From positions 1,290 to 65,289 of the forward strand of contig JAMOSO010000007.1 of assembly GCA_027063065.1 (NCBI GenBank): a stretch of DNA of 64,000 nucleotides, given 5' to 3'. This DNA comes from Planctomycetota bacterium. GTDB taxonomy: Bacteria > Planctomycetota > JAMOSO01. A program made the translations under genes and the position numbers. Below the pieces are notes generated by a model. It did not search any database and was not told the origin of the DNA. It saw only the letters and a program-made list of their open reading frames with translations. Below are positions 44,551 through 53,299 of this stretch, in pieces; position 1 is the first letter of the stretch, and every line of letters starts with the position of its first letter.

Positions 44551-46323
44551 ATGTTACCTAAAAAAGATTTTGTTTTTCTGGATAACGCATTAAAAAGTGA
44601 ATCTGGTTTTGGTTTTGGAAAGCATCAATTGCTTTTTACTAACCCACATAAGCAGTTGGTGTTAAAATCATTTAAACAGGTCAATTCATTTTTTGATGAT
44701 ATAGAAAGGTTATCTAAAAATTTTTGGTTAGCTGGATATTTTACTTATGAGCTAGGTCATTATTTTAATACAGGTATAGCCAAAGCAATAAATACTCCAC
44801 TGGCTTGGCTTGGTGTATTTGATGAACCAAAAGAACCAAATCAAAATTTTTTATCGATGACGCAATCATTTGATATGTCCCAAGGGGCTTTATCACAAAC
44901 CAAGCAAGAATATTTTAAAGCTATTGATTTAATTAAATTAGCCATTGAATCAGGTGTTACTTATCAGGTTAATTATTGTTTAGCATATTTGTTTAAACTC
45001 TGCGGAGATCCGTGGGGGCTTTATAAATTTATGCGTTCTCAACAACCAGTGTCCCATGGGGCTGTATTACAATGTGCAAATATGTGGGCTATTTCAGCTA
45101 GCCCAGAATTGTTTTTTAATTGTAAGTCAAATAAATTACGATCCAAGCCTATGAAGGGTACAGCTTGTCGAGGGCGTAATAATTATGAAGATAACCAACA
45201 ATCTAAATGGTTGCAAAATGATATAAAATCACGGGCAGAAAATGCAATGATTGTAGATTTATTACGCAACGATATTGGGGCGTTATCTGAGTTGGGCTCA
45301 GTTAAAGTGAAAAATTTATTTGATATAGAAAAATACCCAAGCTTATTGCAAATGGTATCTAGCGTTGAAGGTAAATTAAAAAACAATACATCTTGGCAAA
45401 CAATGTTTACAAAGTTATTTCCCTGCGGTTCTATTACTGGTGCGCCAAAAATATCTACGATGCATTTAATTGATCAATTAGAGACTCGGCCTAGAGGTGT
45501 TTATACAGGTGCAATAGGTTATATACATAAAAATTTAGCAGAATTTTCTGTGCCGATCAGAACGGTTCAGTTACAAGAAAATCCCTTGGGTGATTTTAAT
45601 GCAAGCTTAGGCTTAGGTAGTGGAATTATTATGGATTCTGATGCACAATCAGAGTTTGATGAATGTTTACTAAAAGCAAAATTTTTGCAATATAGATACC
45701 CAGATTTCCAATTGTTAGAAACTATGTTATGTAAAAATGGTACTATAGAGTTATTGGATTATCATTTAAATCGAGTGCGAGAGTCGGCTATTTATTTTGG
45801 ATGGGATTTAAATCATCAGTTAATTAAGCAACAAATATTGTCTTTAATCGTAAGCTTAAAGGGATATTATCGTATCAGAATGTTAATTTTTAAAGATGGT
45901 CGATGTAAAATTGAAAAATTTTCTTTTAAAACAGATAAATCTAATCAATTACTTAATGTAACAATTAGTAATCAGCGTATAGATTTGAAAGATTGTTTTC
46001 ATTTGCATAAAACTACTAATAGAAGTTTTTACGATAAGCAATTTTCTATGGCACAAAAACGGGGCTTTGCAGATATTGTATTTTGTAATAAAGATGGTTT
46101 GCTTACACAAGGTGCTATTAGCAATATTTGGATTAAGCGTAAAGGTGTACTATTGACCCCGCCTGTTTATGTGGGTGCGTTGCCAGGTGTTTATCGCCAA
46201 TATTTATTGGATAGGGGGGCAAAAGAATCAAAATTATATTTAGATGATTTAAAAAATGCAGATGAAATATATTTATCTAATGCCCTGCGTGGTTTGCGCA
46301 GGGTTACATTAAATATTAATTAA
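44551..46323 (+). CDS. pabB: aminodeoxychorismate synthase component I fused to aminodeoxychorismate lyase (PabB-PabC)
   Basis: Chorismate-utilising core 'PCGSITGAPK' and a 'KPMKGTA' motif carrying Lys, which is PabB-type rather than TrpE-type Ala. The C-terminal roughly 200 aa are class-IV aminotransferase/ADC-lyase-like. Confidence 0.75.
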   Translation: MLPKKDFVFLDNALKSESGFGFGKHQLLFTNPHKQLVLKSFKQVNSFFDDIERLSKNFWLAGYFTYELGHYFNTGIAKAINTPLAWLGVFDEPKEPNQNFLSMTQSFDMSQGALSQTKQEYFKAIDLIKLAIESGVTYQVNYCLAYLFKLCGDPWGLYKFMRSQQPVSHGAVLQCANMWAISASPELFFNCKSNKLRSKPMKGTACRGRNNYEDNQQSKWLQNDIKSRAENAMIVDLLRNDIGALSELGSVKVKNLFDIEKYPSLLQMVSSVEGKLKNNTSWQTMFTKLFPCGSITGAPKISTMHLIDQLETRPRGVYTGAIGYIHKNLAEFSVPIRTVQLQENPLGDFNASLGLGSGIIMDSDAQSEFDECLLKAKFLQYRYPDFQLLETMLCKNGTIELLDYHLNRVRESAIYFGWDLNHQLIKQQILSLIVSLKGYYRIRMLIFKDGRCKIEKFSFKTDKSNQLLNVTISNQRIDLKDCFHLHKTTNRSFYDKQFSMAQKRGFADIVFCNKDGLLTQGAISNIWIKRKGVLLTPPVYVGALPGVYRQYLLDRGAKESKLYLDDLKNADEIYLSNALRGLRRVTLNIN

Positions 46324-47326
46324 TTTTTTTTGCTTCAATTAGCCAGTGAGGCAATGGGGCTGGCAATTTTGTGGTGCAAGCATTTTTAAAATTGGCATTA
46401 CTTAACCATTGTTTTATTTCTGTATCGCTAAAAACCCACCCATTGTCAGTAGTGAGAGCCATATTGATAGCAAACAAAGCCGAAAACGTAGGTTGTGTAT
46501 GGGTTTTATCTGTCATCATATCTAAAATATAAATTTTACCACCCGGTTTTAAAGCTGTATAAGCTTTTGATAATAACTTTTTTATGTCCTCGGGACTTTC
46601 TTGGTGTAGCATACCAAAAAAATTAATGGCATCCATATTTTGTGGAAATTCTATTTCATGATAACTACCTGCTAAAGTGCTAACTTGTTGATCCATATTA
46701 TGATCGGTAATGATTTCTTGCGCCACTTTTACGACTTCTGGTAAATCTAGTACGATTGATTTTAATCGTGGGTAGGCTTTGGCAATTAAAATGGAGTATG
46801 TGCCGGGGCCACCACCAATATCAAGTAGTCGTGAACAATTGTTATAATCTAAGTGTGGTATTAGACCTTTGCCAATTGCCATAGCTCTACCGTGCATTGA
46901 ATAAACAAAAGTTCTAGTTCTGTTTAAATCACTGCCTAGGTGTATTTCTGGTTTTTCTACTGGCTTACCAGATTTAATTAATTGTGGCAATTTACCCCAT
47001 GCATTATATACATCACGGTTATAGCGAATGGCTTTAGATAAATCTGCGGGTGAATTTTCACTTAAAAATATGGAGCTTATTTCTGTATTATTATAGGTAT
47101 CATTATTTTTTTGTAATAATTGTAGGGCGACACAACCATCTAACAATAATCTTGCACCACGTGTATCTATTTTTAAATCTTTGCTGATGTGTTGAATATC
47201 TTGATTTGGATTGTTTTGTAGATATGTAAAAACACCTAAATCACTGGCAGTGAATAAAATACAAGAGTCATAAAAAGCAGAAGCCATATCAGTAATATAT
47301 TTTGGATTTATTTTATTAGATTGCAT
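46316..47326 (-). CDS. class I SAM-dependent O-methyltransferase (COMT-like, with dimerisation domain)
   Basis: 'LLDIGGGPGTYSILIA' motif I, plus an N-terminal winged-helix dimerisation region. Confidence 0.75.
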   Translation of the reverse strand: MQSNKINPKYITDMASAFYDSCILFTASDLGVFTYLQNNPNQDIQHISKDLKIDTRGARLLLDGCVALQLLQKNNDTYNNTEISSIFLSENSPADLSKAIRYNRDVYNAWGKLPQLIKSGKPVEKPEIHLGSDLNRTRTFVYSMHGRAMAIGKGLIPHLDYNNCSRLLDIGGGPGTYSILIAKAYPRLKSIVLDLPEVVKVAQEIITDHNMDQQVSTLAGSYHEIEFPQNMDAINFFGMLHQESPEDIKKLLSKAYTALKPGGKIYILDMMTDKTHTQPTFSALFAINMALTTDNGWVFSDTEIKQWLSNANFKNACTTKLPAPLPHWLIEAKKIN

Positions 47327-52055: not shown

Positions 52056-53299
52056 TATGGCTCCTGTGTTGATAGTTTAAATTCTGTTGCTAAAGCAAAT
52101 TTTTGAGCTATTACTGCGTAAGCTGTGGTTAATTCGGGGATGTTTTCCCAAAAACGACCATTTTCATTTATCCAATGTCCATCAGCTTTTTGTATGGATA
52201 TTAGCTTTGTGATTAATTCTGGTCGCCATTTATGTTTTTGTTTATCTGGTGTTTGAATTGTTTCTATTTTCATTGCATCTAGCGCTTTTGATGCGGTCAT
52301 ATAGTAATAGTATAATGCCGAGTTGCCTGCTTTTGGGTTCTTTTTAAATTTTGGATCTTCAAGCTTTGGATTGCGTTCCCAGGTATAGTGCTTTTGAATC
52401 CAATCAAATGCTTTTTGTACTTTTTCTGTCATTTCTGGAGTATGTAAATTTGCATAGACTAAAGATTTTACTCCGGCGTAAGTCATAGAACCATAACTGC
52501 GACTGCGTTCGGCTTTGTAAGTGCCAGTTTCGTATCTAAATCCGCCGTCATTTGTGGCGTAATCCATTTTATTATATTTTGTATTTTGACAACGATTTAA
52601 AAAAATTAATGCCTTTTGCCAGTGTAGTCCTAGTTCTTTTTCTTCTTTTTGCATTTCTTTTTTGGAAGGCAAAATAGTTTTAAATGATTGCATATATAAT
52701 TCTGCTTCATGTATTGCATCTAAAGCCATTTGTGTATTTGATAAATCTGGACGTGTATCTCCACCGTAGCCAATACCACCATAAAATTTATGATTTTTAT
52801 TAAAGCCTTCGCCCTCGTCTAATTGAAATTTAACTAAAAAATCATGAGCATTTTTGACAATATCTTTATATTTTGGATCACGAGTTTGTGCAAATGCCAT
52901 TAAACATACAGCTGTTATATAATTGCGGTATTCTTTTTTGTAAATACCACCATTTTTTTGTACAAAGCCCTTTAGAAAATTAAATCCGGCTTCTACAGAT
53001 TGATTGGTTTTGTTGTCATTGATATAAAAGTTAGATTGAGGATCTAACACTATCGAGTATAACACCATGGCAGTTATAGGAGCAGAATCGCACCAAGAAC
53101 CATTTTTTTGTTGTTGTAACATTAAAAAAGTATGAGCTTGAGCTAAGCTATGTTTGCTTTCTTTGAGTAGTGATAGAGGCAAGTGATCATCGGCTTTTAT
53201 AGGGGCGCAGACTATTATCAGACATAGTAAATACAATGGTAGTATGCGATTGACAAATATGTCTGTTGTATGTGTTTTTAAGTCTTTTGTGAAAAGCAT
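52055..53299 (-). CDS. exported prenyltransferase/squalene-oxidase (QW) repeat protein, alpha-alpha toroid fold
   Basis: Signal/anchor sequence. QxxxGxW repeats: 'QQQKNGSW', 'QKADGHW'. Confidence 0.5.
   Translation of the reverse strand: MLFTKDLKTHTTDIFVNRILPLYLLCLIIVCAPIKADDHLPLSLLKESKHSLAQAHTFLMLQQQKNGSWCDSAPITAMVLYSIVLDPQSNFYINDNKTNQSVEAGFNFLKGFVQKNGGIYKKEYRNYITAVCLMAFAQTRDPKYKDIVKNAHDFLVKFQLDEGEGFNKNHKFYGGIGYGGDTRPDLSNTQMALDAIHEAELYMQSFKTILPSKKEMQKEEKELGLHWQKALIFLNRCQNTKYNKMDYATNDGGFRYETGTYKAERSRSYGSMTYAGVKSLVYANLHTPEMTEKVQKAFDWIQKHYTWERNPKLEDPKFKKNPKAGNSALYYYYMTASKALDAMKIETIQTPDKQKHKWRPELITKLISIQKADGHWINENGRFWENIPELTTAYAVIAQKFALATEFKLSTQEP

Follow-up and report, generated by a model that had tools for sequence, protein, structure and literature searches.

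Can an ebo locus that lacks eboF and carries a dehydrogenase gene between eboB and eboC still encode the ebo pathway, and what would such a locus make? In this paper we address this question for an operon of a Planctomycetota bacterium, found on the minus strand at positions 46316-55675 of a 64-kb stretch of contig JAMOSO010000007.1 (assembly GCA_027063065.1, contig positions 1,290 to 65,289). We refer to this whole stretch as the window and use its coordinates throughout. Few orphan biosynthetic clusters are as widespread in bacteria as the ebo genes, whose link to thallusin, a seaweed morphogen active at picomolar levels, has been made only very recently. A preliminary description of the locus had proposed an ebo-like cassette with the gene order eboB-C-D-E, and our results agree with it. 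Judged by its protein sequences, the locus is an ebo-family operon, most like the B-C-F-D-E clusters of the Planctomycetes-Verrucomicrobia-Chlamydiae (PVC) type. We put it at slightly better than even that the nine genes form a functional operon on the eboB-C-D-E core, with a product that is most likely an O-methylated relative of the drimane- or farnesyl-quinolines saccharoquinoline and thallusin.

The ebo core

Four of the six defining ebo genes are present in the operon, and the products of two of them, EboD and EboE, score above the curated NCBIfam cut-offs. EboE (47316..48437) matches AP_endonuc_2 and reaches 386 bits with the ebo-specific model NF035939 (TIM_EboE, cut-off 250), which confirms the xylose-isomerase-like TIM barrel that had been proposed for this gene. 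It keeps the 53 invariant columns common to 29 homologues. Its nearest relatives, 42-46% identical, come from metagenome-assembled genomes (MAGs) of Kiritimatiellae, Lentisphaerota and Fibrobacteria; in the scan of genomes the best EboE relative was 42% identical. EboD (48454..49602) is a sugar-phosphate cyclase that resembles dehydroquinate synthase and is of the DHQ_synthase type, with 510.5 bits for NF004852 (cut-off 333) and further matches to PF01761 and PF24621, and it is 46-53% identical to EboDs within ebo clusters.

EboB (51225..52055) is TatD-like, as had been expected. It is an amidohydrolase-fold protein matching TatD_DNase (PF01026) with 41.6 bits against a cut-off of 27, and it keeps the HxH motif and the other invariant ligands. 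Its identity to the first TatD gene of the B-C-(F)-D-E clusters (46 non-redundant) is 53-62%. A neighbour-joining tree of 125 EboBs places it in the EboB clade, where it pairs with the EboB of one metagenomic contig, L085, and this pair is sister to 92 PVC-type EboBs.

EboC (49602..50486) is a UbiA-family prenyltransferase with about 8-10 hydrophobic segments by hydropathy. The aspartate-rich motif NDIIDINED, the Tyr preceding it and the Arg of the CRG motif, whose roles have been described (PMC9235831), are all present. The preliminary description had the right domain for this ORF (open reading frame), 49602-50525, but its start is more likely the ATG at 50486 than the TTG at 50525. Among the models NF035940 (EboC) scores best, but its 132 bits fall short of the cut-off of 250. 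Seven PVC-type EboCs that we tested score 132-205 bits on this model, against 343-371 bits for the Bacteroidota genera Arenibacter and Flagellimonas. Since all tested PVC-type EboCs are below the threshold, the low score is a trait of the subfamily and not peculiar to the window locus.

Operon structure

The operon consists of nine co-directional ORFs, which we name here in the order of transcription. The first is QW2 (54044..55675), followed after 34 nucleotides (nt) by a gene with a YdjY domain (53302..54009) and after another 2 nt by QW1 (52055..53299). The stop codon of QW1 overlaps the start of eboB by 1 nt. EboB is separated by 11 nt from a gene for a short-chain dehydrogenase/reductase (SDR; 50488..51213), which in turn ends 1 nt before eboC, counted from the ATG at 50486. 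EboC and eboD overlap by 1 nt, eboD and eboE are 16 nt apart, and the end of eboE overlaps by 11 nt the last gene, which encodes an O-methyltransferase (OMT; 46316..47326). The ebo genes are thus clustered and co-directional, with junctions from -11 to +16 nt, and these junctions together with the three start/stop overlaps imply co-translation. Upstream of the block lies scpB, at a distance of 56 nt. The 3' end of the OMT gene runs by 8 nt into a convergent PabB/PabC fusion gene, and therefore the unit ends there.

The seven genes from QW1 to OMT had been listed before, and Pfam and NCBIfam searches recover all of them at the same coordinates and with the same domains. The genes of the unit delimited earlier (46316-53299) are real, but the unit extends further upstream, through two more genes to 55675. 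Likewise, the tight packing reported earlier is correct, except that one of the gaps, between eboD and eboE, exceeds the range of 0-15 nt by a single nucleotide.

The GC content at third codon positions (GC3) is 0.19-0.27 in all nine genes and 0.23-0.27 in the housekeeping genes of the window, so nothing in the operon looks recently imported. By hydropathy, EboB, SDR, EboD, EboE and OMT are soluble, EboC is a membrane protein, and QW2, YdjY and QW1 are of the envelope type. A scan for promoters and terminators yielded as many hits as expected from shuffled sequence and was uninformative, and a search with Rfam detected no regulatory RNA in 45000-57500.

Taxonomic distribution and gene order of related loci

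For comparison we collected 82 genomic loci through EboE and 80 metagenomic loci through EboB; individual loci of this set are given by their L numbers. A scan of metagenomes with EboD alone returned nothing, and the 80 loci returned with the EboB alignment include none more than 62% identical. After the EboBs had been collapsed at 95% identity, 46 clustered loci of the subtype remained.

The related loci form two groups. In Bacteroidota and some others the order is (A)BCDEF and EboB is about 40% identical to that of the window. In the PVC-type clusters the order is B-C-F-D-E, eboA is absent and EboB is 53-62% identical; these clusters are found in MAGs of Kiritimatiellia, Lentisphaerota, Planctomycetota, Fibrobacteria and Desulfobacterota. 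The eboC gene directly follows eboB in 45 of the 46 loci. Comparing synteny had been suggested as a check on the cassette, and the recurrence of the B/C/D/E order in these 46 non-redundant loci is beyond chance. We therefore exclude a chance juxtaposition of the core genes. We found neither the PVC-type subtype nor its OMT accessory described in the thallusin preprint (10.64898/2026.05.21.724671), in its supplement or in PMC5133447.

The closest relative of the operon is L085, a contig of 2.9 kb (1-2853) that corresponds to window positions 51225-54100 and keeps the order QW2 (C-terminus)-YdjY-QW1-EboB, including the overlap of the QW1 stop with the eboB start. The proteins are 53% (YdjY), 70% (QW1) and 87% (EboB) identical, although the GC content is 55% in L085 and 33% in the window. 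For eboB the identity at the first, second and third codon positions is 0.85/0.96/0.31; across the shared genes it is 0.28-0.33 at third positions, which is the random level, and 0.73-0.96 at second positions. Synonymous sites in eboB are thus saturated while the protein remains 87% identical, which indicates strong purifying selection. The preservation of the gene order, despite third positions at the random level and the shift in GC content, argues for selection on the arrangement in the lineage of the window and L085. This points to one of two histories: related organisms that have moved very far apart in base composition, or a block that passed long ago between distant hosts.

We also observed, on many metagenomic contigs, EboB-type TatD genes, 57-61% identical, that have no other ebo gene within 10 kb (L091, L096, L110, L114, L115, L118, L131, L145 and others; EboB at about 10001-10828). 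At least 10 of these loci are non-redundant and have at least 4 kb on both sides. ABC permeases, Rrf2 regulators and hybrid-cluster proteins are among the products of the genes around them, with no consistent signal. Either these organisms keep their ebo genes scattered or EboB serves a role independent of ebo.

The dehydrogenase and the O-methyltransferase

The SDR is a classical member of PF00106 (197 bits). The motifs TGASRGIG, NNAG, NIAS and YTASK are all present, so that the TGxxxGxG and NNAG motifs and the N-S-Y-K tetrad are intact, and the nearest solved relatives are FabG-like. The position of the gene is singular: none of the 45 other clusters of the subtype has a gene between eboB and eboC. 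We considered a recent horizontal insertion and rejected it, as the GC3 of the SDR gene (0.215) fits that of native genes. Co-directional SDR genes occur near two other ebo loci, in a Planctomycetaceae locus with the order 215-residue protein-SDR-DedA-OMT-B-C-F-D-E (L019) and in a Kiritimatiellota locus with the order SDR-180-residue protein-D-E (L075). These SDRs are 27-33% identical to that of the window, which could be chance in so common a family. That non-ebo genes can be inserted in such clusters, and that the small partner can differ (eboA versus eboG), was recognised as early as 2016 (PMC5133447).

The last gene of the operon encodes a protein that, by its domains, is a family-2 O-methyltransferase of the COMT/ASMT-like type, dependent on S-adenosylmethionine. 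It matches Methyltransf_2 (PF00891, 102.9 bits) together with the Dimerisation domain (PF08100, 58.3 bits), and contains the motifs DIGGGPG and LH. A catalytic role of the His would follow by analogy only. The nearest solved relatives are ASMT, RedM, SibL and DsyB. Of the 22 loci that reach eboE, 6 have a homologue next to the cluster, and so does L076. Identity is 52-58% in L011, L013, L019, L139, L140/L142 and L076, and only 36% in L004. From this distribution the OMT is a recurrent accessory of the PVC-type ebo subclade. As about a quarter of the PVC-type clusters carry a dedicated OMT, methylated congeners are predicted.

The SDR, OMT and QW genes had been regarded as additions particular to this locus. 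They do belong to the same unit, but the OMT is recurrent, SDRs appear sporadically elsewhere and the absence of eboA is normal in the subclade.

The QW and YdjY genes

QW2 is anchored in the membrane by one transmembrane helix (residues 57-75); an acidic linker leads to an (alpha/alpha) toroid at the C-terminus, which contains QW repeats and matches SQHop_cyclase_C (PF13243) with 52.7 bits. QW1 has an N-terminal signal-like segment followed by one domain, an (alpha/alpha)6 barrel that falls in the terpene-cyclase beta-domain/prenyltransferase class, with QW repeats and a weak SQHop_cyclase_C/Pec_lyase match. The terpene-cyclase fold suggested earlier for the QW proteins is therefore right in so far as both have the (alpha/alpha)6 beta-domain fold. 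The acid motif of class II cyclases is missing, as neither D.D nor D.DD occurs in QW1 or QW2. The acidic residues that are invariant in the QW1 family, a family with 2709 matches, are D161/E162 and D185.

The YdjY protein scores 48.1 bits on NF040466 (ydjY_domain), just under the cut-off of 50, and starts with a signal-like hydrophobic segment. A hidden Markov model (HMM) of the genes preceding QW1 in L025 and L060 matches it at 6e-15. Its family is a small one (116 representatives out of 1.84 billion). The AlphaFold2 model is confident (predicted local distance difference test score of 92), and Foldseek found no similar fold in the PDB (best E 0.38, template modelling score about 0.1), hence no functional clue. 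It looks like an exported alpha+beta domain for which no structure has been characterised.

The closest homologues of QW1 are 48-55% identical and none of them is near ebo genes. They occur in L083, in Desulfatibacillum (L084), in Ca. Magnetomorum (L086) and in a Verrucomicrobiota MAG (L087), and all except the one in L086, where no partner is detectable, have a YdjY-like partner. As the nearest QW1 homologues are paired with YdjY away from ebo, YdjY-QW1 is an independent two-gene envelope module. This module has nevertheless docked on ebo genes elsewhere, as YdjY-QW1-B in L060 and as TonB receptor-YdjY-QW1-C in L025. Related arrangements are a lone EboB gene with a QW1-like gene after it (L156), a QW2-like gene between B and C (L007), and a QW1 homologue (P0134) followed by DedA and Phosphodiest genes in the order QW1-DedA-?-Phosphodiest.

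TonB-dependent receptor genes flank YdjY-QW1 in two unrelated genomes, a member of the Desulfatiglandales (L025, 935-3055) and Desulfatibacillum (L084, 5069-7111). The module may relate to the uptake or handling of a ligand at the outer membrane; thallusin is described as a metal chelator (preprint 10.64898/2026.05.21.724671).

Genes for DedA/VTT proteins are found directly upstream of eboB in four PVC-type loci (L001:5015-5707, L094:9210-9896, L013:3448-3990 and L019:3868-4530). E. coli ydjY sits between the DedA genes ydjX and ydjZ. These neighbourhoods hint at a functional association of DedA, YdjY and ebo that is tied to lipid translocation.

The missing eboF and eboA

As the preliminary description had stated, eboA and eboF are not recognisable at this locus. 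Searches of all six-frame ORFs in the 64-kb window gave no match for EboF (phosphodiesterase/alkaline-phosphatase family PF01663; HMM of 46 EboFs, E<=10), which was also the result of tblastn, nor for EboA (HMM of 19 EboAs) or for DedA/VTT (HMM from 3 proteins). The packing of the operon leaves no room for an extra small ORF such as EboA or the alternative EboG. The core set for thallusin comprises eboB, C, E and F, wherever in the genome they lie; the window contains B, C and E but no F. Either eboF is encoded elsewhere in the genome or it is dispensable in this lineage. A distant eboF is conceivable, as Planctomycetota and related phyla have scattered ebo genes (thallusin preprint; PMC5133447). 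The locus should not be filed as a canonical eboABCDEF cluster or as a thallusin cluster.

Proposed pathway and alternative explanations

The preliminary description had regarded the chemistry of ebo as unresolved, which is now outdated. The product of EboD is known (review PMC12904256), and a preprint of May 2026 ties eboB, C, E and F to thallusin: deleting any one of them in Stieleria abolishes thallusin, labelling shows L-aspartate being incorporated into the quinoline, and EboCs from three phyla farnesylate 6,7,8-trihydroxyquinaldic acid (10.64898/2026.05.21.724671). Based on this work we suggest the following pathway for the window locus. The soluble proteins EboE, an inosose-dehydratase-like TIM barrel, and EboB, with its metal hydrolase fold, would between them convert an inosose and an aspartate-derived unit to a polyhydroxylated quinoline-2-carboxylate, with no division of roles assigned. 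The SDR probably supplies an oxidation or reduction step. A dedicated dehydrogenase is plausible, since aromatising a cyclitol to a trihydroxy-benzo ring should need a net oxidation that no canonical Ebo protein obviously provides. In the membrane, EboC would attach the farnesyl chain, as three other EboCs do, and the terminal OMT would methylate a phenolic hydroxyl. QW2, YdjY and QW1, which are presumably co-transcribed, would act outside the cytoplasm and most plausibly bind or process the lipidic product after its export; this is the weakest step of the proposal. In favour of a functional pathway, all catalytic and invariant residues of the operon enzymes are retained.

Several observations weigh against this reading. 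In all 32 related clusters that reach far enough, eboF follows eboC, and it is absent here, while in Stieleria eboF is essential for thallusin. The confirmed planctomycete thallusin producers have scattered ebo genes and not a cluster of the type in the window (both from preprint 10.64898/2026.05.21.724671), and a preprint is the source for the link between ebo and thallusin. With the model of the SCO3242 prenyltransferase, PVC-type EboCs reach 92-161 bits, nearly as high as on the EboC model and below the cut-off of either, so that their specificity for the substrate or the prenyl donor may differ. Finally, the scans of genomes and metagenomes found no close relative beyond the 2.9 kb of L085, and the SDR insertion and the loss of eboF are thus seen in the window only. 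With eboF missing, the product remains uncertain. The distinct product that had been proposed in place of the canonical ebo function is possible rather than established; what is truly unique to the locus is the missing eboF and the position of the SDR gene.

The near-equal EboC scores are one reason to consider a different product, namely a prenylated or polyprenylated cyclitol lipid of the envelope. EboC would then act like its archaeal-lipid or SCO3242-type relatives, and the product would be flipped to the outer leaflet and handled there by the QW and YdjY proteins. The missing eboF, the translational coupling of the exported QW and YdjY genes to eboB, and the DedA/VTT genes that directly precede eboB in the four loci named above would all fit such a lipid. 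The DedA/VTT family is described as including polyprenyl-phosphate transporters (bioRxiv 10.1101/2022.02.03.479048), and Nostoc ebo mutants are reported to have a periplasmic-export phenotype (PMC6282210). Yet planctomycete and Bacteroidota EboCs farnesylate hydroxyquinolines, ebo deletions abolish thallusin, the Tyr and Arg proposed to contact the aromatic substrate are conserved in the window EboC, and an OMT of the COMT/ASMT type suits a phenolic substrate better. We regard the cyclitol lipid as unlikely. Even less likely, in our view, is that the locus is a decaying remnant left after the loss of eboF. A gene reported as essential for thallusin is indeed absent from the window, but nine intact ORFs with preserved catalytic motifs and family-invariant residues, and the strong purifying selection seen against L085, make decay very improbable, and eboF may lie elsewhere, as in related phyla with scattered ebo genes.

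It is a more serious question whether QW2-YdjY-QW1 belongs to the pathway at all. These genes might have landed upstream of ebo, giving two unrelated units on one transcript and a pathway that extends from eboB to OMT only. The closest QW1 homologues are all away from ebo genes, a QW gene adjoins an ebo gene in about 4 of roughly 150 loci retrieved via EboE or EboB, YdjY-QW1 has a TonB-dependent receptor beside it in L025 and L084, and the confirmed producer genera of Bacteroidota have no QW or YdjY genes beside eboABCDEF. Against this stand the overlap of the QW1 stop and the eboB start, kept in the window and L085 despite saturated synonymous divergence and a 20-point difference in GC, the independent adjacencies in L060, L025, L156 and L007, and the further QW1 homologue followed by DedA and Phosphodiest genes. 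Taken together, we consider the two-unit explanation a real possibility that falls somewhat short of an even chance. A bolder idea in the opposite direction is that the drimane-quinoline pathway finds its missing cyclase or late processing enzyme in QW1, perhaps together with YdjY and QW2. It would be an exported monodomain MstE-like (alpha/alpha)6 protein that acts in the periplasm on the product of EboC, folding its farnesyl chain or maturing it in another way, with D161/E162 or D185 as a non-canonical acid in place of DxDD. We think of this as a long shot; if it were true, it would also explain the old link of ebo to periplasmic steps in Nostoc.

The locus, without eboF but with an SDR, offers a natural experiment on the indispensability of EboF. 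The thallusin work left open which enzyme cyclises the farnesyl chain, what carries out the oxidative steps and if a single compound is the product of all ebo clusters, and the window locus and its relatives bear on all three questions.

Other genes in the window

Converging on the operon, at 43503-46323 on the plus strand, are a gene for a CobT-like phosphoribosyltransferase (176 bits, cut-off 306) and, after 1 nt, the PabB-PabC fusion, an aminodeoxychorismate synthase with a class-IV aminotransferase-like C-terminus. We considered the fusion, the CobT-like gene and YaaA as members of the pathway and rejected them; they are on the opposite strand and their homologues are beside no other ebo locus.

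A PD-(D/E)XK family transposase (PDDEXK_2) and a phage-type integrase are found at 11793-12674 and 22430-23512, 24-35 kb from the operon and with no evident link to it. On the minus strand, the gene for a 645-residue protein with a Tim44-like domain (7797-9734) overlaps the start of a gene for an SPFH/Band-7 protein with C-terminal double zinc ribbons (9704-10810). NfeD and HflK/HflC genes occur at other places in the window, so that SPFH-system genes are unusually concentrated here. The gene content is PVC-like, including GH20, DUF4838, a PQQ_2/Laminin_G_3 protein of 1355 residues and QW-repeat proteins. All window proteins that we looked up are singletons at 90% identity. For the Tex protein the best matches are 66% identical, Desulfuromonadaceae follow at 63-64%, and other phyla are mixed in at 58-62%. 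No tRNA genes were found in the 64-kb window.

Comparison with known systems

The eboABCDEF clusters of Bacteroidota and eustigmatophyte plastids (Yurchenko 2016), which include those of the thallusin producers Maribacter, Zobellia, Arenibacter and Flagellimonas, consist of the same four families in the same B-C-D-E order. Their EboD and EboE pass the same NCBIfam models and the Asp-rich motif, Tyr and Arg of EboC are conserved. Compared with Arenibacter and Flagellimonas, identity is 39-44% for EboB, 28-30% for EboC, 44-45% for EboD and 35-36% for EboE. Unlike these clusters, the window has neither eboA nor eboF, its EboC scores 132 rather than 343-371 bits, and it carries the extra SDR, OMT and QW2/YdjY/QW1 genes.

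The PVC-type clusters (L001, L004, L011, L013, L019, L060, L094, L139 and others) are the closest relatives in sequence, with identities of 53-62% for EboB, 46-53% for EboD and 33-46% for EboE. They share with the window the lack of eboA and the low-scoring EboC, an OMT orthologue in about a quarter of cases, and occasionally DedA, SDR or QW/YdjY genes. They differ in having eboF between C and D wherever they extend past eboC, and in having no insert between B and C, while the window and L085 form a deep branch of their own. In a large uncultured branch of PVC bacteria, Fibrobacteria and Desulfobacterota, ebo thus has a layout of its own and EboC is divergent, and some of the PVC-type clusters there have recruited an SDR or exported proteins with a terpene-cyclase fold.

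Among the Planctomycetota themselves, the thallusin producers Stieleria maiorica and Rhodopirellula (preprint 10.64898/2026.05.21.724671), which we compared by their description, are likewise PVC bacteria that lack eboA. Their ebo genes are all unclustered, in contrast to the tight cluster (minus F) in the window, and they give a precedent for a distant eboF. The EDB cluster of Pseudomonas fluorescens NZI7 also combines the ebo core with lineage-specific extras (six ebo homologues and three further genes; PMC12904256), but it keeps all six ebo genes, and nematode repellence is the phenotype linked to it. Scytonema has a monodomain class II meroterpenoid cyclase, MstE (PDB 6sbb-6sbg), that is 11-15% identical to QW1, which differs in having an N-terminal export signal and no DxD, and QW1 matches sugar epimerases and GH76 enzymes almost as well. 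Seen beside these systems, ebo is a kind of system already known. What is new here, namely the loss of eboF, an inserted SDR, an OMT that recurs and exported partners with the cyclase fold, still provides useful and testable leads, both for natural-product discovery and for completing the pathway.

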